From NCBI RefSeq assembly GCF_036507355.1, contig NZ_AP027877.1: a stretch of 64,000 nucleotides of DNA; one strand, given 5' to 3'. Position numbers and translations under genes: made by a program. Below are positions 30,193 through 49,715 of this stretch, in pieces. This DNA is from Escherichia coli (GTDB lineage Bacteria > Pseudomonadota > Gammaproteobacteria > Enterobacterales > Enterobacteriaceae). How positions within the stretch are numbered: position 1 is the stretch's first letter; every line of letters begins with the position of its first letter. Below the pieces are notes generated by a model that saw only the letters and a program-made list of their open reading frames with translations, did no database searches and was not told where the DNA came from.

Positions 30193-30293
<101 letters not shown>

Positions 30294-30384
30294 CAATGAA
30301 TGCGAAACCGCGGTGTAAATAACGACAAAAATAAAATTGGCCGCTTCGGTCAGGGCCAACTATTGCCTGAAAAAGGGTAACGAT

Positions 30385-31755
30385 ATGAAAAAATTAACCT
30401 GCTTTAAAGCCTATGATATTCGCGGGAAATTAGGCGAAGAACTGAATGAAGATATTGCCTGGCGCATTGGTCGCGCCTATGGCGAATTTCTCAAACCGAA
30501 AACCATTGTGTTAGGCGGTGATGTCCGCCTCACCAGCGAAACCTTAAAACTGGCGCTAGCGAAAGGTTTACAGGATGCGGGCGTCGATGTGCTGGATATT
30601 GGCATGTCCGGCACCGAAGAGATCTATTTCGCCACGTTCCATCTCGGCGTGGATGGCGGCATCGAAGTTACCGCCAGCCATAACCCGATGGATTACAACG
30701 GCATGAAGCTGGTGCGCGAAGGGGCTCGCCCGATCAGCGGTGATACCGGACTGCGCGACGTCCAGCGCCTGGCAGAAGCCAACGACTTCCCTCCCGTTGA
30801 TGAAACCAAACGCGGTCGCTATCAGAAAATCAACCTGCGTGACGCTTACGTTGATCACCTGTTCGGTTATATCAATGTCAAAAACCTCACGCCGCTCAAG
30901 CTGGTGATTAACTCCGGGAATGGCGCAGCGGGTCCGGTGGTGGACGCCATCGAAGCCCGCTTTAAAGCCCTCGGCGCACCAGTGGAATTCATCAAAGTGC
31001 ACAACACGCCGGACGGCAATTTCCCCAACGGTATTCCTAACCCGCTACTGCCAGAATGCCGCGACGACACCCGCAATGCGGTCATTAAACACGGCGCGGA
31101 TATGGGCATTGCTTTTGATGGCGATTTTGACCGCTGTTTCCTGTTTGACGAAAAAGGGCAGTTTATCGAGGGCTACTACATTGTCGGCCTGTTGGCAGAA
31201 ACATTCCTCGAAAAAAATCCCGGCGCGAAGATCATCCACGATCCACGTCTCTCCTGGAACACCGTTGATGTGGTGACGGCCGCAGGCGGCACCCCGGTAA
31301 TGTCGAAAACCGGACACGCCTTTATTAAAGAACGTATGCGCAAGGAAGACGCCATCTACGGTGGCGAAATGAGCGCCCACCATTACTTCCGTGATTTTGC
31401 TTACTGCGACAGCGGCATGATCCCGTGGCTGCTGGTCGCCGAACTTGTGTGCCTGAAAGAGAAAACGCTGGGCGAACTGGTGCGCGACCGGATGGCAGCA
31501 TTTCCGGCAAGCGGTGAGATCAACAGCAAACTGGCGCACCCCGTTGAGGCGATTAATCGCGTCGAACAGCACTTTAGCCGCGAGGCGCTGGCGGTGGATC
31601 GCACCGATGGCATCAGCATGACCTTTGCCGACTGGCGCTTTAACCTGCGCTCCTCCAACACCGAACCGGTGGTGCGGTTGAATGTGGAATCGCGCGGTGA
31701 TGTGCCGCTGATGGAAGCGCGAACGCGAACTCTGCTGACGTTGCTGAACGAGTAA
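30385..31755 (+). CDS. cpsG: Phosphomannomutase (colanic acid copy)
   Basis: Start at [15 protein letters not shown] (456 aa); TASHNP active-site motif. Confidence 0.95.
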
Positions 31756-31809
31756 TGTCGGATCTTCCCTTACCCCATTGCGGGTAAGGGGCTAATAACA
31801 GGAACAACG

Positions 31810-38862: not shown

Positions 38863-39036
38863 ATTTGCGACCATTCCTGGAAAAATGGAGCCATACTTAA
38901 GAACAATGCTACTGCAATCCACAACGAAGCGGCGTAACATCACAAGTAATTCAGTAATCAATTCAGGGTAATTGATGCTGGCGAAGAAAATCGAACAAGC
39001 TATAATTCAGCAACCATTTTACAGGTGGATGAAATA

Positions 39037-39930
39037 ATGACGAATTTAAAAGCAGTTATTCCTGTAGCGGGTCTTGGGATGCATATGTTGCCTGCCACTA
39101 AGGCGATTCCCAAAGAGATGCTACCGATCGTCGACAAGCCAATGATTCAGTACATTGTTGACGAGATTGTGGCTGCAGGGATCAAAGAAATCCTCCTGGT
39201 AACTCACGCGTCCAAGAACGCGGTCGAAAACCACTTCGACACCTCTTATGAATTAGAATCTCTCCTTGAACTGCGCGTGAAGCGTCAACTGCTGGCGGAA
39301 GTACAGTCCATTTGCCCGCCGGGCGTGACAATTATGAACGTGCGTCAGGGTGAACCTTTAGGTTTGGGCCACTCCATTTTATGTGCACGACCTGCCATTG
39401 GTGACAATCCATTTGTCGTGGTGCTGCCAGACGTTGTGATCGACGACGCCAGCGCCGACCCGCTGCGCTACAACCTTGCTGCCATGATTGCGCGCTTCAA
39501 CGAAACGGGCCGCAGCCAGGTGCTGGCAAAACGTATGCCAGGTGACCTCTCTGAATACTCTGTCATCCAGACCAAAGAGCCGCTGGACCGCGAAGGTAAA
39601 GTCAGCCGCATTGTTGAATTCATCGAAAAACCGGATCAGCCGCAGACGCTGGAATCAGACATCATGGCCGTTGGTCGCTATGTGCTTTCTGCCGATATTT
39701 GGCCGGAACTTGAACGCACTCAGCCAGGTGCATGGGGGCGTATTCAGCTGACTGATGCCATCGCCGAACTGGCAAAAAAACAGTCCGTTGATGCCATGCT
39801 GATGACAGGTGACAGCTACGACTGCGGTAAAAAAATGGGCTATATGCAGGCATTCGTTAAGTACGGACTGCGCAACCTGAAGGAAGGGCCAAAGTTCCGT
39901 AAGAGCATTGAGAAGTTGCTCGGGGAATAG
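39037..39930 (+). CDS. galF: UTP-glucose-1-phosphate uridylyltransferase subunit GalF
   Basis: Start at [14 protein letters not shown] (297 aa). Confidence 0.95.
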
Positions 39931-40185
39931 ATCCAAGCCAATGTAACAATAATTTAGATAAATAGCGGCAGCTAACATTCCGGCGTCTATGCTTTAAACA
40001 AAGGAATGTTACTGTCGTTTTTCTTTTTAAAACAAAGAATAACAACGAGTTAACCTACTAAGTTTAATCTATTTTTTGTTGGATTTATCCTTGTTTCTGA
40101 CAGCATTTGGTAAGACAATTGGCGTTTGAATTTAAGATAGCTTTGCGATAGCTAGCGGGGCGGGGTACATCTTTGGCATTTTGCT

Positions 40186-40223
40186 AGTGCACTGGTAGCT
40201 GTTAAGCCAGGGGCGGTAGCGTG
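40186..40223 (+). promoter_or_regulatory. JUMPstart element with ops (GGCGGTAGCGTG at 40212-40223) in the O-antigen operon leader
   Basis: agtgcactggtagctgttaagccaggggcggtagcgtg; second exact ops copy in the window. Confidence 0.85.
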
Positions 40224-40322
40224 GTAAGATTGTGTTTATATGATGCGTTCTCAAAATAAGAAATAATAATCCTGACTATTTTTATACTATTGATAATATC
40301 TGAAATAAACTTAAGAGCAAAC

Positions 40323-41327
40323 ATGAAAGTAATTGTAAATAATTTTTTTGATGGTATTTTGAAAAGAGGAATACCGATCTATACTTCTGAACTTGTGCAA
40401 AAGTTAAGAGACAATAATGTTCAGGTTATTTATGTTGCATGTCCAAAAGCATTCCATAAGCTGCCTTCATGGTTTCTGAATGTTCTTTTTATAATAGTAG
40501 AGCAGCTTTTAATACCAATTATGGGTATATTTTATAGAACTAAGTATAATATATATCCCTATAATAGTAGTTCCATCATTGACTTGTTATTAGGTAAGGC
40601 AATTGTTATAATTCATGACTTCATTAGTCTTAAGAAAAATAAACGAAATCTTGCTGCCATTTATGTGAAAGTCTGTATTTATTTTTCATCTTTTTTAGCA
40701 AAGAAAGTAATATTTATTTCTCAAAGCACTCAGCGAGTATCTAAGAGAATATCGCTATTTAAGTGTATAGAATCTATCCTGCTCCCAAATCCATTTTTCT
40801 CATTTGAGAAAATTGCTAATGTTACCGAAATAAAAGATCTTGGATATTTACTTCTAGTTTCAGGTTTAGGGGATAATAAGGATCTAGGCACAGCTCTGGA
40901 CTATTATTTTTCAATCCCAAGGGAAGAAAGAATACCATTAAAAATATTAGGTTGTGGGAATGGTATTAGCAAGGTTAACGACTTAATTGATGGGCGGGAT
41001 ACAGATAAAGAAATTGAAATTATTGGTTTTGTTTCTTTAGAGGAAGTCGTCAAACTATATTGTAATTCTAAAATTGTTTGGGCTCATTCGCTTGCCGAGG
41101 GGTATGGGAGGACTTTAGCTGAAGCAAAACTCACATGCAAAAATGTTATATGCACACGGATCTCTGCTTTCCGCGAACAAAAGGATTCGAATATTTTCTT
41201 TTATACTTACTATTCTGAGTATTATGAAGTCTATTCATACTTGGTAGATAATTCACCCAGTGTCGAAAGGAAAGCTCTGCATGAACATATTTTATTTGAA
41301 AATGAATTGAGAAAGATTTATGAGTAA
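40323..41327 (+). CDS. O-antigen glycosyltransferase (GT1/GT4-like)
   Basis: AT-rich ORF; C-terminal EGYGRTLAEA resembles the GT4 E-x7-E motif; start could also be 40290. Confidence 0.7.
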   Translation: MKVIVNNFFDGILKRGIPIYTSELVQKLRDNNVQVIYVACPKAFHKLPSWFLNVLFIIVEQLLIPIMGIFYRTKYNIYPYNSSSIIDLLLGKAIVIIHDFISLKKNKRNLAAIYVKVCIYFSSFLAKKVIFISQSTQRVSKRISLFKCIESILLPNPFFSFEKIANVTEIKDLGYLLLVSGLGDNKDLGTALDYYFSIPREERIPLKILGCGNGISKVNDLIDGRDTDKEIEIIGFVSLEEVVKLYCNSKIVWAHSLAEGYGRTLAEAKLTCKNVICTRISAFREQKDSNIFFYTYYSEYYEVYSYLVDNSPSVERKALHEHILFENELRKIYE

Positions 41328-42522
41328 TATTGATATAAATAAGAAACAGATCTTAGTTTTGACTCCACGGTTCCCGTTTCCTGTCATTGGTGGGGATCGA
41401 TTACGTATCTATAAGATCTGTAAAGAACTGTCTAAGCATTATGATCTTACGTTGCTGAGTCTGTGTGATAAACGCGAAGAGCTCAACTATGAATATGATC
41501 GTGAAGTTTTTAGTAGTGTTCACAGAGTATATCTTTCAAAGAAAAAATCTATTTTAAATGTCATATTCTCTTTGTTTTCAAATACTCCCCTACAGATTGG
41601 GTATTATAAATCTAAAGAATTTGAAGATAAACTTAAGCAGTTATTACCTGAACATTCTGCAACTCTTTCACATTTGATAAGGGTTGGTGATTATGTGAAA
41701 GAGAATAAAGATATAAATTTTTTAGAGATGACCGATGCCATTTCACTTAATTATAAACGAGTAAAGGAAAAAGCATCTTTATTGAGTTTAAAAACATTTG
41801 TATATTCTTTTGAACAAAAAAGACTCGAACGATATGAGCGAACTATAAATAACAAGTTCAGCTTGACTACTTTAGTATCACAGGTTGACTCCGATTATTT
41901 ATATCCAGACCGTCCGAATAATGTATTAGTCTGTGGAAATGGTGTTGATGCCGTTAGCTTACCTTTTTCAGAACGAAAAATAGCTAAAGATAAAAAGATA
42001 ACCCTTGTATTTATAGGTAATTTATATTCTTTGCAAAATATGGATGGTGTGAGATGGTTCACCAAGGAAGTTTTACCATTTCTTAACAAGCATGGTAATT
42101 TTGAATTTAAGGTCATCGGACGTATTACAGATAAAGATAAGAGTTGGTTAGAAAGCCAGCCTGGCGTTGTTGTCACAGGTGAAGTTGATAGCATAACTTA
42201 TGCAGCAGCTGATGGGCATATTGGTGTATGTCCTATTAGATTAGGGGCAGGTATCCAAAATAAGGTACTTGAATATATGGCGTTGGGATTACCTTGTATC
42301 TCTTCTACTGTAGGCTTTGAAGGCTTGGGAGCAGAGGAGGGTAAGGAGATTTATGTTGCCAATACAAAAGAAGAATATTTACGTGTATTAAATTATTTTA
42401 TAACAAATCTGGATAAATATACCGAAACAGCATTAGTTGCGAAAAAGTTCATCGGTGAGAATTTTTCATGGGAAGCTAAATTGAGCCCATATATCCAGAA
42501 AATTAAGGAGTCTGTTAAATAA
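41320..42522 (+). CDS. O-antigen glycosyltransferase (GT4 family)
   Basis: 400 aa; GT4-like C-terminal domain ([22 protein letters not shown]). Confidence 0.75.
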
Positions 42523-42523
42523 A

Positions 42524-43939
42524 ATGATTATCCCAATTATTATGGCCGGTGGTTCTGGTACTCGCTTATGGCCTCTTTCGCGTTCGTTATACCCGAAACA
42601 ATTTTTATCATTGATTAATGAAAATAGTTTGCTCCAGGAAACGTTGAAGAGACTTGATGGATTAAATTGTTTGCCTCCTGTCATTGTTAGCAATAATGAG
42701 CATAGATTTATTGTTGCTGAACAATTGCGCCAGTTCGGTGTGGATGACTTCCAGATTATTCTAGAACCTGTAGGTAGAAATACTGCGCCCGCCGTTGCGC
42801 TGGCTGCTCTAAAGTCTCTAGAACTCCATGGCGATCATCATATGCTGGTTCTTGCTGCTGACCATGCTATTCAGGATATTGAAGCCTTCCATGCAGCTGT
42901 TTTAGCTGCAGAACAAGAGTCCGTTGACAATAAGTTAGTGACTTTTGGCATCGTCCCGACCAAACCTGAAACTGGGTATGGCTATATTAAAAAGGGCGAA
43001 CAAGTTAAAAACTCTGTATTTAAAGTAAATTCTTTCGTCGAAAAACCTGATTTAGAAACGGCTAAAAATTATCTCGAACAAAAATGCTATTTGTGGAATA
43101 GTGGTATGTTCATGTTCAAGGCGAGCGTATATTTAGATGAATTGAAAAAATTTCGCCCTGATATTTTAGCAGCGTGTAAAGAGTCGCTTTCCAGTGCTAG
43201 TACTGATCTAGATTTTATCAGATTAAATTCTGATGTCTTTGCAGAATGTCCCGATGAGTCAATTGATTATGCGGTAATGGAAAAAACTCAGGATTGTGTA
43301 GTTATTCCACTTGATGCTGACTGGAGTGACATCGGTTCATGGACATCACTTTGGGAAATATCAGAGAAAGATGAACATGAAAACGTATCGCATGGCGATG
43401 TAATTAACTATAACAGCAGGAACAACTACATTTACTCTGAAGGTTCACTGATCAGCACTGTAGGAGTTAATAACCTTATTATAGTTCAAACTAAAGATGC
43501 GCTCCTGGTAGCACAGCAAGACAACGTACAAGACATAAAGAAGATTGTCGAAATTCTTAAAAAGCAAAAACGTAGCGAACATGTATCCCATCGCGAAGTC
43601 TATCGTCCTTGGGGACGTTATGATTCTGTAGAACGTGGCGACCGTTATCAGGTAAAACGTATTACCGTTAAGCCTGGTGAATGTCTCTCAACACAAATGC
43701 ATCATCATCGAGCTGAGCATTGGGTGGTTGTCGCTGGTACTGCAAAGGTGACTTGCGGCGAACGCACTTTTTTCGTCACTGAAAATGAGTCAACTTTCAT
43801 ACCAATTGGCACAGTTCATACCTTGGAAAATCCAGGAAAGATACCATTAGAAGTAATTGAGATTCAGTCGGGTGTATATCTAGGTGATGATGATATTGTG
43901 CGCCTAAGTGATAAATATGGTCGTGTTGAGGATAAATAA
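42524..43939 (+). CDS. manC: Mannose-1-phosphate guanylyltransferase (O-antigen copy)
   Basis: 471 aa; [16 protein letters not shown]; collinear with cpsB but AT-rich. Confidence 0.9.
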
Positions 43940-43943
43940 TTAT

Positions 43944-45365
43944 ATGAATATTACCAATGATGTAATTAAAAATAGCGGAATTGCATTTGGTACAAGTGGT
44001 GCTCGTGGATTAGTGAAAGATTTTACACCCAACGTGTGTGCTGCATTCACTTATGCTTTTATCGATGTAATGATGAAGGATTTTTCTTTTAAAGAGGTTG
44101 CGCTCGCAATAGATAATCGGCCAAGCAGCTATGCTATGGCACAAGCTTGCGCAGCAGCATTGTTGGAATGTAGTATTAAACCTATTTACTACGGTGTAAT
44201 TCCAACTCCAGCTTTGGCAAATCAAGCGATTGCCGATGGGATTCCTGCAATAATGGTTACTGGAAGTCATATTCCATTTGATAGAAATGGTTTGAAATTC
44301 TATCGTCCAGACGGGGAAATTTCAAAAGAAAATGAGAACAGCATTATACATGCTGAAAAAGAGTATCCTGATGTAACTGTATTGCCAGAATTACAATGTT
44401 CAAAGCGTGCCGCTGATACTTATATCGAGAGAAACACTTCAATTTTTTCAAATATATTTAAAGGTAAACGTATCGGGATTTATGAACATTCAAGTGCGGG
44501 ACGGGATCTTTATTCAGAAATATTCAGTAAACTTGGTGCTGAAGTTGTAAGTATTGGTAGAAGTGATAAGTTTGTGCCTATTGATACTGAAGCAGTATCA
44601 AAAGAAGATGAAGAAAAAGCTTTACACTGGTCATCTGAGTATGACCTCGATATGATTTTTTCTACCGATGGTGATGGCGATCGTCCTTTGGTTGCTGACG
44701 AAAATGGCGTTTGGTTACGGGGTGATATATTAGGACTATTTTGCTCAAAGGCAATGAATATTGAAGCGGTAGCTGTACCTGTAAGTTGTAATACGGTTAT
44801 TCAGACTTGCGGGTGGTTTAATCATGTAACGCTGACTAAAATTGGTTCACCATACGTCATTTCAGCGTTTGATTCTCTGAATAATAGTTTTGATAGGGTT
44901 GCAGGGTTTGAGGCTAACGGTGGGTATCTTTTAGGTAGCGATGTAAATTATAACAGCGGTATGATTAAAGCGCTTCCAACAAGAGATGCTGTTTTGCCTG
45001 CTTTAATGGTACTGGCACTGGCTATAAAAAATAATGTGACTATTTCAAAACTCTTGGCGGAGTTGCCACCACGATTTACCTACTCAAATAGAGTTCAAAA
45101 TTTTGCAACAAGCAAAAGCAAAAGCATTATCGCGTCAGCTCAAGAAAATCCTCAAGAATTTATCGAAAGAATAGGCTTTGTCGATCTTCATGTACAATCG
45201 GTGGATACAATTGACGGGTTAAGATTGACACTAAGTGATGGTTCAATAATCCATTTGCGACCGTCAGGCAACGCACCTGAATTGCGATGCTATGCAGAAG
45301 CAGATAACATAATAAAAGCTGAAAAATTAGTGTTAGAAGTTTTGCATAAAGTTACTCTTTTGTAA
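43944..45365 (+). CDS. manB: Phosphomannomutase (O-antigen copy)
   Basis: Start at [22 protein letters not shown] (473 aa); AT-rich. Confidence 0.85.
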
Positions 45366-45547
45366 AAAATATAAACTTTTTTCTACTCTTGAGCGGTTTG
45401 TCATTTAACCGCTCAGTAATAGATTGTTTATAAATTGTTTATATTTAGCATTGGTGTTTTTATTTGCGTTCATCCCGAATAAGAGATTGTAAAATTAACT
45501 GTTTCTTATTTTTCAAATGAGTTACTTCACTAGTAAAGCTAATTACT

Positions 45548-46879
45548 ATGCATAAGCAATATTATTTATTATTGTGCAATAAAATACAGTTTAAACATCT
45601 GGCTATATATTTTTCTGTATTTCTTTCACTATCCTCATGTTTCTTGTGGGGAGGGGCGGATACATTTGTATCGCAAGTGTATATTGATATTTTAGCCACT
45701 ATATCTACAGCGCTATTAGTTATTTTGATGTTCTATTATTATATTAATAGAGTTCGCTATTTATCACTAACCTTACTTTTTGCATTCGTTTTTTCTTTGA
45801 TTATTGGTTTGCCATCGATTTATCTTTACTATTTTAAAAACGCAAATCATGGGTTTGAAATAATTTGTATCTGGGGGATGTTGATCAATTCCATCCTTTA
45901 CTTGCAAACAACAGAGACTGTCATAAAAGAAGAAAAAAGATATTTAACTAGTTTATTTTATATTTTGTTTTCTATTGTTGCACTGTGTCAATTATACAAA
46001 ATATTAATTTATCTTATGTTTATATTGAATTCAGGAGAAGGGCATTTAGCAATTTATACTGAAAGCGAAGAATTGCTATCCCAAGTTCCATTTTTTATTC
46101 GTGCTATTAGTGGTTTTGCAGTTGTAATGTCATTGTCCACTTTTTATTTTAAAACACCGACCTACATTAAAGTTATTGCATTTGTTTTACTTGCATCTGA
46201 TTTAGCTATTGGAATACGTAATAAGTTTTTCTTTTCAGTGATTTGTATTTTTATACTATATATGTACTCTAATGAGTATAGAGTAAGAAATTTATTTAAG
46301 CAGCTCTCAAAACCAATATTTCTCATCGCCGGTTTTTTATGCTTCTCGATGGTATCGTATTTCCGTGAAGGGTACCAAATCGATTTTATGATTTATATTG
46401 GCATTGTTTTAGATTCGCTATCCTCTACTCTTGGGGGGATGCAGAATTTGTTTGATATGCAATCATCAGGATGGGATCAACTTCATCCCGCTGTGGTATT
46501 CACACAAGTATTACCGCTAAGCGGTCTTGGTTTTCTTGATGATCAACAAATCGCAAAAGATTTTTCAATAATTGTTTTAGGTGATGTATCCTCTGGTATT
46601 GCGTTGTCATCTTCAGGATTGTTAGAGTCATCGTTGCTGAGTCTAAACTTGGGAGTGATTATTTATTTACTGTATTTATCAGGGGTGATGCTATTTATTA
46701 AATGGGGACTAAATAATCAACGGATAATAATAAACTTTGTTGCCATCTCCATGATATCTGGATTTTTTTATGCTGTTCGTGGTGAACTGATTTTGCCATT
46801 GGCTTTTCTTCTAAAATCATTGCCGATTGTTCTTATATCTCCATTACTTGTTAAAAATAAAATTTATCATGGTCAGTAA
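45548..46879 (+). CDS. wzy: O-antigen polymerase
   Basis: 443-aa extremely hydrophobic, very AT-rich ORF with multiple predicted TM segments; start uncertain. Confidence 0.7.
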   Translation: MHKQYYLLLCNKIQFKHLAIYFSVFLSLSSCFLWGGADTFVSQVYIDILATISTALLVILMFYYYINRVRYLSLTLLFAFVFSLIIGLPSIYLYYFKNANHGFEIICIWGMLINSILYLQTTETVIKEEKRYLTSLFYILFSIVALCQLYKILIYLMFILNSGEGHLAIYTESEELLSQVPFFIRAISGFAVVMSLSTFYFKTPTYIKVIAFVLLASDLAIGIRNKFFFSVICIFILYMYSNEYRVRNLFKQLSKPIFLIAGFLCFSMVSYFREGYQIDFMIYIGIVLDSLSSTLGGMQNLFDMQSSGWDQLHPAVVFTQVLPLSGLGFLDDQQIAKDFSIIVLGDVSSGIALSSSGLLESSLLSLNLGVIIYLLYLSGVMLFIKWGLNNQRIIINFVAISMISGFFYAVRGELILPLAFLLKSLPIVLISPLLVKNKIYHGQ

Positions 46880-46920
46880 GTGGTTTATTTTTCGACCAGG
46901 ATCTCACCAGTAGGCATGAC

Positions 46921-48156
46921 ATGATCAAAGAAATTTTCTCCGATGGCATTTTTTCGCTATTTAATAAAATATGTTACTTCGGTTTTAAAACACTTGCAAT
47001 AATTCTGATTACTCGTTCCTTAGGAGAAGATGTAGGCGGAGAGTTCATTTTTTTAGTTGGTTTTCTCGAAGTCCTTCGGGTGGTTACTGATTTTGGTGTG
47101 GATCTGTTTGTTATAAAAAAATATAATGATTCTACAGATAAAATAAAACTATTAAATGTAACGTTTGCACAAAAAATTCTTTCTGGAGTAATTGTTTTAC
47201 TACTGTTTTGTTTGTATTCTTTTGTTCAGGGTTATCAATATAATGTCTATATTCCTATTGTGTTAGCCTTACCTGTTGCTTTATTTTTTAATTTCTCAAA
47301 TAGCTATTTTCAATCTCTAAATTCCAATAAATCTCTCACGTTTCCGATCGCAATTGCATCTATTGCAACGTGTACGATCTTCGCTATTCAGTATTTTTTC
47401 AACGTTAAATTTAACGCATGGGATTACCTGTGTGTTGAACTATTATTCGTATCGCTGGTTACACTAAAACTATTCGTTAGTGTCAAGTTTAGGTTTATTA
47501 GAACGTCAGCTTTTGATGTGCTAATGTCAATTCTTTCTTTATATAAATATACATTAAGTATAGGTCTTACAGCTGTTGTTGTAATTATTTATAGCCGTAT
47601 AGATAATTTTTATCTCAAGACATTTGCCCCAGGGGATCTTGCAGCATATGGCCAGATATTTAGGATGGTTGATCCACTGGTTATGGTTTCTTCTGTATTT
47701 TCTACAGTTGCCTATGCAAGATTTTGCCGAATTAACTTACAAGAAAAAAATACTTTTACTAAGGTGTTTCAGTTCCTGTTATGTATTGTGGCATATGGCG
47801 TGCTGAGTTCATTAGTTTATTTCTTTATAATAAAATACCTGGGTCATTTTGTATTGATTTCTAATGTTAATAATGATTTCTTGATAATGATGTTCTTGAT
47901 TGTTGCATGTGTGAAATGTATCAATGGTGGTACAACTGCAATAATTCAGTCACAGGGGTTTTATAAAGTGGGTTTGTATGTTTCGTATGTTTGCATTTTG
48001 ACATCGATACCAACTATGTATTTCTTAATAATGAAGTACGGTGTTAAAGGTGCTGCTATGACGATTCTGCTTGTAGAGTGTATTAGTTTCATATTACTTC
48101 TCTGCAGCTTTTTTATGATAAAAAAGATGCGTCCTAAAAAAACATTCGAAATGTAA
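46921..48156 (+). CDS. wzx: O-antigen flippase
   Basis: 411-aa polytopic membrane protein with Wzx-like N-terminus (RSLGEDVGGEF...DFGVD). Confidence 0.75.
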   Translation: MIKEIFSDGIFSLFNKICYFGFKTLAIILITRSLGEDVGGEFIFLVGFLEVLRVVTDFGVDLFVIKKYNDSTDKIKLLNVTFAQKILSGVIVLLLFCLYSFVQGYQYNVYIPIVLALPVALFFNFSNSYFQSLNSNKSLTFPIAIASIATCTIFAIQYFFNVKFNAWDYLCVELLFVSLVTLKLFVSVKFRFIRTSAFDVLMSILSLYKYTLSIGLTAVVVIIYSRIDNFYLKTFAPGDLAAYGQIFRMVDPLVMVSSVFSTVAYARFCRINLQEKNTFTKVFQFLLCIVAYGVLSSLVYFFIIKYLGHFVLISNVNNDFLIMMFLIVACVKCINGGTTAIIQSQGFYKVGLYVSYVCILTSIPTMYFLIMKYGVKGAAMTILLVECISFILLLCSFFMIKKMRPKKTFEM

Positions 48157-48308
48157 TCAATGAGTCCTCTTTGAATAGAATTAGTTTGTTCTATTTATGA
48201 ACACTTAGCTTGAGTAAGTTCTAACATAGATTACTAATTGTTTGATACTATCTGCTTTACAAGCATAACCGCGTATGTCGCGGTGACCACACCTGACAGG
48301 AGTATGTA

Positions 48309-49715
48309 ATGTCCAAGCAACAGATCGGCGTCGTCGGTATGGCAGTGATGGGGCGCAACCTGGCGCTCAACATCGAAAGCCGTGGTTATACCGTCTCCGT
48401 CTTCAACCGCTCCCGCGAAAAAACTGAAGAAGTTGTTGCCGAGAACCCGGGTAAGAAACTGGTTCCTTATTACACGGTGAAAGAGTTTGTCGAGTCTCTT
48501 GAAACCCCTCGTCGCATCCTGTTAATGGTGAAAGCAGGTGCAGGCACGGATGCTGCTATTGATTCCCTCAAACCATATCTCGATAAAGGTGACATCATCA
48601 TTGATGGTGGTAACACCTTCTTCCAGGACACTATTCGTCGTAATCGTGAGCTTTCAGCAGAGGGCTTTAACTTCATCGGTACCGGTGTTTCCGGCGGTGA
48701 AGAGGGGGCGTTGAAAGGGCCTTCCATCATGCCTGGTGGGCAGAAAGAAGCCTATGAACTGGTTGCACCAATTCTGACCAAAATCGCCGCAGTAGCTGAA
48801 GACGGTGAGCCATGCGTTACCTATATTGGTGCCGATGGCGCAGGTCACTATGTGAAGATGGTTCACAACGGTATTGAATACGGCGATATGCAACTGATTG
48901 CTGAAGCCTATTCTCTGCTTAAAGGTGGTCTGAACCTCACCAACGAAGAACTGGCGCAGACCTTTACCGAGTGGAATAACGGTGAACTGAGCAGCTACCT
49001 GATCGACATCACCAAAGATATCTTCACTAAAAAAGATGAAGACGGTAACTACCTGGTTGATGTGATTCTGGATGAAGCAGCAAACAAAGGTACCGGTAAA
49101 TGGACCAGCCAGAGCGCGCTGGATCTCGGAGAACCGCTGTCGCTGATTACAGAGTCTGTGTTTGCACGTTATATCTCTTCTCTGAAAGATCAGCGCGTTG
49201 CCGCTTCTAAAGTTCTCTCTGGCCCGCAAGCGCAGCCAGCAGGCGACAAGGCTGAGTTCATCGAAAAAGTTCGTCGTGCGCTGTATCTGGGCAAAATCGT
49301 TTCTTACGCTCAGGGTTTCTCTCAGCTGCGCGCAGCGTCTGAAGAGTACAACTGGGATCTGAACTACGGCGAAATCGCGAAGATTTTCCGTGCTGGCTGC
49401 ATCATCCGTGCGCAGTTCTTGCAGAAAATCACCGATGCTTATGCCGAAAATCCACAGATCGCTAACCTGCTGCTGGCTCCGTACTTCAAGCAAATTGCCG
49501 ATGACTACCAGCAGGCGCTGCGTGATGTCGTTGCTTATGCAGTACAGAACGGTATCCCGGTTCCGACCTTCGCTGCTGCGGTTGCCTATTACGATAGCTA
49601 CCGTGCCGCTGTTCTGCCTGCGAACCTGATCCAGGCACAGCGTGACTATTTCGGTGCGCATACTTATAAGCGCATTGATAAAGAAGGTGTGTTCCATACT
49701 GAATGGCTGGATTAA
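48309..49715 (+). CDS. gnd: 6-phosphogluconate dehydrogenase (decarboxylating)
   Basis: 468 aa; [16 protein letters not shown]. Confidence 0.97.

Follow-up and report, generated by a model that had tools for sequence, protein, structure and literature searches.

Downstream of manB in the O-antigen operon of this Escherichia coli strain lies an AT-rich spacer with a short, perfect inverted repeat, which raises the question of whether the repeat is a product of chance, a leftover of recombination, a site recognised in the DNA, or a structure that acts in the transcript. The window, i.e., the whole stretch of 64,000 nucleotides that was analysed, carries the colanic-acid cluster followed by an O-antigen cluster of the E. 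coli O17/O44/O73/O77/O106 type ("O77-group"), whose clusters share >99% identity (PMC7685785). In RefSeq, the genes flanking the spacer are named phosphomannomutase and 'O17/O44/O73/O77/O106 family O-antigen polymerase', and both wzy and wzx of matching RefSeq genomes bear the 'O17/O44/O73/O77/O106 family' name. The spacer separates an upstream operon segment, of which manB is the final gene, from a downstream segment that begins with wzy and wzx (Table 1), and the GC content, 0.38 in manB, drops to 0.31 in wzy. No Shine-Dalgarno-like motif was recognisable by eye in the sequence preceding the wzy start codon. In studied clusters, the JUMPstart element carries an ops site through which RfaH is recruited; since such an element stands at the head of the present operon, the latter is presumably RfaH-dependent.

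The arms of the repeat, GAGCGGTT (45391 to 45398) and AACCGCTC (45407 to 45414), are perfect complements. An earlier note on this DNA had described an 8-bp perfect hairpin at 45391 to 45414 between manB and wzy, and both the coordinates and the complementarity proved correct; the loop, which it gave as 9 nt long, has 8 nt (TGTCATTT). At the RNA level, the stem is extended to 10 bp by the pairs T45390-A45415 and T45389·G45416 and contains five G-C pairs, its minimum free energy being −15.1 kcal/mol (z = −5.5; none of 200 shuffles was as good). The structure begins 24 nt past the manB stop codon. As the note had also stated, no U-run follows: the eight bases 3′ of the stem, UAAUAGAU, include only three T, and a terminator scan did not list the hairpin. 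Compared with a canonical intrinsic terminator, the stable, G+C-containing stem-loop is thus present and the U-tract is absent. The spacer is AT-rich, as described earlier, but the length of 183 nt then reported is that of most RefSeq genomes, which have seven A residues after the manB stop codon, and not that of the window, which has six (45366 to 45371). Seven A residues are also found in the best-matching RefSeq genomes and in two of the three that were aligned; the six of the window may represent a homopolymer variant or a sequencing difference, and the open reading frames are unaffected.

Table 1. Features of the colanic-acid and O-antigen clusters in the window that are referred to in the text
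Feature	Position	Strand	Remarks
cpsG-wcaJ hairpin (colanic-acid cluster)	31766-31791	+	10 bp, GC-rich, −17.1 kcal/mol, z = −3.4; 11 nt past the cpsG (manB) stop
galF	39025-39930		
JUMPstart element	40185-40223	+	operon head; Rfam RF01707, 59.2 bits (gathering score 35), E = 7e-12
Glycosyltransferase 1	40290-41327		
Glycosyltransferase 2	41320-42522		
manC	42524-43939		
manB	43944-45365	+	phosphomannomutase, 473-aa 'type A' lineage; start as in the RefSeq CDS; matches PGM/PMM families
manB stop codon (TAA)	45363-45365		
manB-wzy gap	45366-45547		AT-rich untranslated spacer, 182 nt, GC 0.27
Stem-loop	45389-45416	+	5′ arm 45389-45398, loop 45399-45406, 3′ arm 45407-45416
Second, AU-rich hairpin	45477-45511	+	11+2 bp, −9 kcal/mol, z = −3.5; 36 nt ahead of the wzy ATG, 3′ arm continuing into UUUUU
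wzy	45548-46879	+	O-antigen polymerase; first gene of the downstream segment; ATG at 45548
wzx	46921-48156	+	O-antigen flippase; second gene of the downstream segment
gnd, ugd, wzzB			downstream of wzx

Judged from the window alone, the case for a meaningful structure is only moderate. Of 5000 dinucleotide-preserving shuffles of the gap, 294 (5.9%) contained a perfect Watson-Crick inverted repeat of at least 8 bp, for which reason the "perfect 8 bp" property is weak by itself, and the number of such repeats in the whole cluster is about the same as in shuffled sequence, with no excess. The folding energy is more discriminating, being matched by a single one of 1000 gap shuffles; on the plus strand of the 7.9-kb cluster, only three hairpins reach −12 kcal/mol or lower, the manB hairpin among them. 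It is the comparative evidence that is decisive.

Within E. coli, the gap was found in 93 of 5,426 complete genomes, always on the chromosome and in a single copy, and none of the other clusters in these 5,426 genomes has a similar spacer. The stem-loop is identical in 90 of the 93 genomes; two have a change in the loop and one a C-to-T exchange that results in a G·U pair, such that pairing is kept in all three variants. A REP/BIME or another repeated element was rejected on the grounds that a 40-mer occurs exactly once in each of the 93 genomes and nowhere else in the 5,426. The other spacer matches are chance matches of 24 nt on plasmids and concern a part of the spacer outside the hairpin. 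An Rfam scan of positions 39000 to 49000 at E values up to 10 returned only JUMPstart and chance snoRNA or miRNA matches, none of them within the gap, and the JUMPstart/ops sequence GGCGGTAG is likewise absent from the gap, the sole JUMPstart match being the one listed in Table 1. Open reading frames of 22 to 23 amino acids occur on both strands of the gap and were dismissed, as nothing backs them; none of at least 20 amino acids has a convincing signal. In the commensal E. coli strain G4/9 (NZ_CP060073.1), the O77-group cluster has decayed, with an IS3 element in manC and frameshifts in manB, wzy, and wzx; the hairpin there is intact.

Two further features of the spacer were recorded. The second, AU-rich hairpin is kept in the closest related cluster (L004, see below) via four one-sided A/G changes opposite U and is unrecognisable in Salmonella. 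A 12-codon upstream open reading frame, MSYFTSKANYYA (45517 to 45555), overlaps the wzy start codon, with its TAA located 3 to 5 nt past that codon, an arrangement that could permit translational coupling. It was rejected as a functional element, considering that in L004 it is intact but differs exclusively by non-synonymous changes and that in Salmonella it is absent.

Related loci were reached through Wzy homologues, leading to contigs with the order manC-manB-gap-wzy-wzx. These comprise L004 (88% Wzy identity), a Salmonella enterica cluster (L005, 70%), L006/7 (60%), six loci of Ewingella, Enterobacter, Citrobacter, and Salmonella Cerro types (L008 to L013, 50 to 56%), and E. coli O176 (L143, 50%). 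Together with the window's own O-antigen locus and its cpsG-wcaJ gap, 12 enterobacterial loci were available in which manB is followed by wzy or wcaJ. In all 12, which share kinship and hence are not independent, the strongest hairpin of the gap begins 8 to 25 nt past the manB stop codon, with energies from −13 to −18.6 kcal/mol. In each of the ten wzy-anchored gaps that were tested by dinucleotide shuffling, no more than 2 of 1000 shuffles matched the hairpin. The stems belong to at least five unrelated sequence types. As controls served 21 other intergenic gaps from the same loci, including manC-manB, wzy-wzx, and the wzx-gnd operon end, none of which holds a hairpin below −10.4 kcal/mol. 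The background rate was taken from a metagenome scan with a manB C-terminal motif, which recovered mostly unrelated environmental taxa and contributed, from E. coli, only two identical copies. Among the 116 unrelated type-A manB 3′ ends obtained in this way, about 11% show a similar hairpin close to the stop codon. The earlier note had listed a lack of conservation in related clusters among the findings that would speak against its hairpin; each related cluster that was examined has a hairpin in the equivalent position, with compensatory changes.

The cpsG-wcaJ hairpin lies within a gap of just 54 nt (cpsG ends at 31755). Like the manB-wzy hairpin, it follows a manB-type gene, lacks a U-tract or U-run, and precedes genes for polytopic membrane proteins (WcaJ and WzxC), whereas its manB is non-orthologous (CpsG type), its stem is unrelated in sequence, and its gap is far shorter. 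Literature searches yielded no description of a hairpin at the 3′ end of manB or cpsG. In the preceding cpsB (manC)-cpsG gap of the colanic-acid cluster (30193 to 30384, 192 nt), two REP-like palindromes, GTCGGATGCGGCGTGAACGCCTTATCCGACCTAC and GTAGGCCTGATAAGACGCGGCAGCGTCGCATCAGGC, form a BIME, and a further hairpin, TTGGCC...GGCCAA, stands directly before the cpsG start. At the other end of the O-antigen operon, the wzx-gnd region (48157 to 48308 in the window; also L009, L011, and L143) displays no strong hairpin or terminator in the loci checked, the best structure reaching −9.1 kcal/mol, and E. coli, Salmonella, and the L013 locus share a conserved motif, ACCGCG..GCGGTGACCACACCT, shortly before gnd. 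Among the Wzy matches, a predicted protein of 523 amino acids from a Logan assembly (P0021) matches Wzy at 99% identity across 44% of the query and in addition has nucleotidyl-transferase (ManC-like) Pfam domains; it is probably an assembly or gene-calling chimera.

Pairing is preserved when E. coli is compared with Salmonella. The two are saturated for synonymous changes in manB and wzy (0.37 to 0.40 identity), and the stem persists though the rest of the spacer is unalignable, TTGAGCGGTTT/AACCGCTCA corresponding to TTAAGCGGTTT/AAACTGCTTAA. Because of the unalignable flanks, MAFFT misplaced the hairpin of the Salmonella spacer, and a short alignment restricted to the hairpin was used instead. 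In this alignment of five distinct sequences from E. coli, L004, and Salmonella L005, the ten core pairs are paired throughout (100%). Both partners have been replaced in two of these pairs (G-C to A-U; U-A to G·U) and a single partner in three, G-C having become G·U twice and U·G having become U-A once. In a column-shuffle control, the observed covariation was reached in 24 of 500 cases, a result that with five distinct sequences is only suggestive. Matched changes are also seen farther away: the L012 and L013 stems, GCCAAA/TTTGGC and GCCAGG/CCTGGC, have AA/TT swapped for GG/CC around an identical loop, and those of L010 and L011 differ by a matched T/A double deletion, one on each arm. The comparison provides unusually clear support for conservation of structure without conservation of sequence. 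Through G·U pairs, the sense-strand fold is more stable than the antisense fold in seven of 11 loci, equal in three, and lower in one; for the window hairpin the two values are nearly equal (−15.1 and −14.3 kcal/mol), and the strand argument rests on the relatives. This G·U usage would point to an RNA structure, probably on the sense transcript, rather than to a DNA element.

These comparisons bear directly on the alternatives. That the hairpin is a mere accident of AT-rich DNA, as the shuffle frequency of 8-bp repeats and their lack of excess in the cluster could suggest, is effectively refuted by the rarity of its energy, by its recurrence at the same position in 12 of 12 loci as opposed to none of 21 control gaps, and by the covariation. 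A palindrome acting at the DNA level, either as a site for a dimeric regulator or as part of a promoter driving wzy-wzx separately, is very improbable. Such a reading could draw on the near symmetry of the inverted repeat in the window and on a promoter-like sequence overlapping the loop (TTGTCA-16-TAGATT, 45398 to 45425, 9 of 12 positions), but promoter-like matches in the region are no commoner than in shuffled sequence (39 versus 34.9 ± 7.1), on which basis an internal promoter in the gap was rejected. Moreover, stem sequences differ wholly between lineages while pairing is kept, a pattern that fits a structure and not a protein recognition sequence, and the C-to-T changes opposite G preserve RNA pairing but break DNA pairing. 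The main rival, which we regard as fairly unlikely, is a partial intrinsic terminator: some polymerases would halt at the hairpin, RfaH recruited via JUMPstart/ops would suppress this, and wzy and wzx would consequently be more RfaH-dependent than the upstream genes. It is consistent with the JUMPstart element at the operon head and with the relatives, since a U-tract follows the hairpin in five of the 12 loci (L006/7, L008, L009, L012, and partly L013), giving the look of a canonical intrinsic terminator. It also has a precedent in the stem-loop transcriptional attenuator that group 1 capsule and Klebsiella cps clusters under JUMPstart/RfaH control have between wzc and wbaP/wcaA (PMC3438125). 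The manB hairpin resembles that attenuator in being an internal, intergenic stem-loop of a JUMPstart-headed, Wzy-dependent operon that divides two functional gene blocks, and differs from it in following manB instead of wzc, in lacking a Rho-independent U-tract, and in showing no sequence similarity. Experimental work on the K30 wzc-wbaP type attenuator was reportedly performed by Rahn and Whitfield in 2003. Against attenuation stand the T-poor tail UAAUAGAU in the window and the absence of a U-tract in L004 and Salmonella as well; E. coli RNA polymerase terminates poorly at hairpins that lack a proximal U-tract. In all, seven of the 12 hairpins are not followed by one (the window, L004, Salmonella, L010, L011, O176, and cpsG). 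The lineage of the window, L004, and Salmonella has kept the stem since its divergence without a U-tract, and the selected property thus does not need one, making it unlikely that termination itself is what has been selected in this lineage. Given the U-tracts at five of the 12 hairpins, termination or attenuation may nevertheless be the ancestral or the main role.

The gap is at the same time a boundary between modules. One and the same type of wzy-wzx module (50 to 56% identity to that of the window) is joined to two non-orthologous kinds of manB: type A, of 473 to 475 amino acids, in the window and in L004 to L007, the window protein being 90, 75, and 67% identical to those of L004, L005, and L006, respectively, and a CpsG-like form of 456 amino acids in L008 to L013, with 23% identity to type A and 77 to 87% to the colanic-acid CpsG of the window. 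Since one module pairs with two manB types, the gap separates segments with different histories, and the suggestion of the earlier note that it may be a recombination junction holds in this evolutionary sense. Of its two other suggestions, an internal attenuator and a processing site, the former, in its classical form, is weakened because the hairpins of E. coli, L004, and Salmonella have no U-tract; the interpretation offered in the note is thus partly supported. A breakpoint relative to other E. coli serogroups could not be mapped, since DNA identity in manB is only about 66% there and the match breaks off within the gene. In E. coli PK8566, of another serogroup (L149), an IS5 element is found immediately past the manB stop codon, where other loci have hairpins. 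It could be argued from the module boundary, and from the GC drop between manB and wzy, that the hairpin is an evolutionary scar, namely, an old terminator of a manC-manB (or GT-GT-manC-manB) cassette stranded at the wzy-wzx junction and now without function; type-A manB does often end clusters, in other E. coli serogroups as well as in marine bacteria, and is then sometimes followed by a terminator-like hairpin. We consider this unlikely. A neutral remnant is expected to decay, whereas here, despite synonymous saturation and an unalignable spacer, the stem has stayed whole through changes that are compensatory or preserve G·U pairing. In addition, other E. coli serogroups in which gnd directly follows type-A manB present no uniform picture, with one strong hairpin, one moderate one, and two that are weak or absent. 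Mixed results came also from marine relatives and from a manB-profile scan of the genome collection, which yielded only eight distant loci (54 to 64% identity). A hairpin is kept invariably only where manB is internal to the operon, which argues against a passive scar; the junction idea leaves its retention unexplained.

The explanation that we tentatively prefer, while rating its chances somewhat below even, is that the hairpin is a selected stem-loop of the sense transcript which would define a 3′ end, block exonucleases, and thereby lower expression of the downstream membrane-protein genes. We infer, by analogy with known systems, that it would act on RNA ends, RNA stability, and expression ratios in the following manner. 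The hairpin would be placed just out of reach of a ribosome terminating at the manB stop codon; from general knowledge, its distance from that codon is taken as enough to escape such a ribosome. Cleavage would strike the AU-rich spacer, which is long and untranslated, and the poorly translated wzy-wzx segment, or transcription would end early there, and 3′-5′ exonucleases would then trim the RNA back as far as the hairpin. As a result, the upstream segment encoding the two glycosyltransferases, ManC, and ManB would outlive the segment for the polytopic membrane proteins Wzy and Wzx. In relatives with a U-tract, the site may also terminate part of the transcripts, with RfaH-modified polymerase reading through.

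The class of elements to which such a stem-loop would belong is established. Its classic example is the protective 3′ structure formed by the REP hairpin between malE and malF; the manB hairpin differs from it in not being a REP/BIME element and in being single-copy in the 93 genomes. A transcriptome-wide set of protective 3′ structures bounding differentially decaying operon segments was described by Dar & Sorek 2018 (PMC5927463), and in this class cleavage and decay remove the downstream part, which is poorly translated, and the structure protects the upstream part against 3′-5′ exonucleases (PMC5927463). The manB hairpin would fit the class because of its AU-rich, untranslated spacer, the lack of a recognisable Shine-Dalgarno sequence before wzy, and a position clear of the terminating ribosome. 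Like the members of that set, it is stable, stands at the boundary of two segments of the same operon, and does not need a U-tract; both are conserved between E. coli, Salmonella, and Enterobacter, and a low ribosome density downstream would be expected here. Unlike them, it is situated in a true intergenic spacer, theirs being generally encoded inside the downstream open reading frame. With canonical intrinsic terminators it has in common a GC-containing hairpin shortly past a stop codon and equivalents with U-tracts in L006/7, L008, L009, and L012; it is set apart from them, in the window, by its 8-nt loop, the absence of a U-tract, and its location in the middle of an operon, with two cluster genes on the same strand downstream. 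Overall, the manB-wzy hairpin adds a case not described so far to a known kind of element, the intercistronic, operon-dividing stem-loop, and intercistronic protective or attenuating hairpins being already well known, the larger picture is unchanged.

A wider proposal, about which we are more doubtful than about the preferred explanation for the single site, is that a stem-loop fixed in position but free in sequence after manB is a general design rule of Wzy-dependent polysaccharide operons (O77-like, O176, and colanic acid). Splitting the operon would cap the level of the downstream polytopic membrane proteins Wzy, Wzx, and WcaJ; lineages could switch freely between a U-tract terminator and a U-less exonuclease barrier while keeping the site, and the hairpin would be rebuilt or retained at each recombination of a manB module. 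Should the hairpin indeed govern how much sugar-nucleotide and glycosyltransferase message is present relative to that of wzy and wzx, this would explain how a single promoter yields very different amounts of cytoplasmic enzymes and of potentially toxic membrane proteins, and transfers of O-antigen clusters into glycoengineering hosts would have to preserve this site or could adjust it. It would also mean that in these clusters a structure can be conserved across module swaps where sequence is not.
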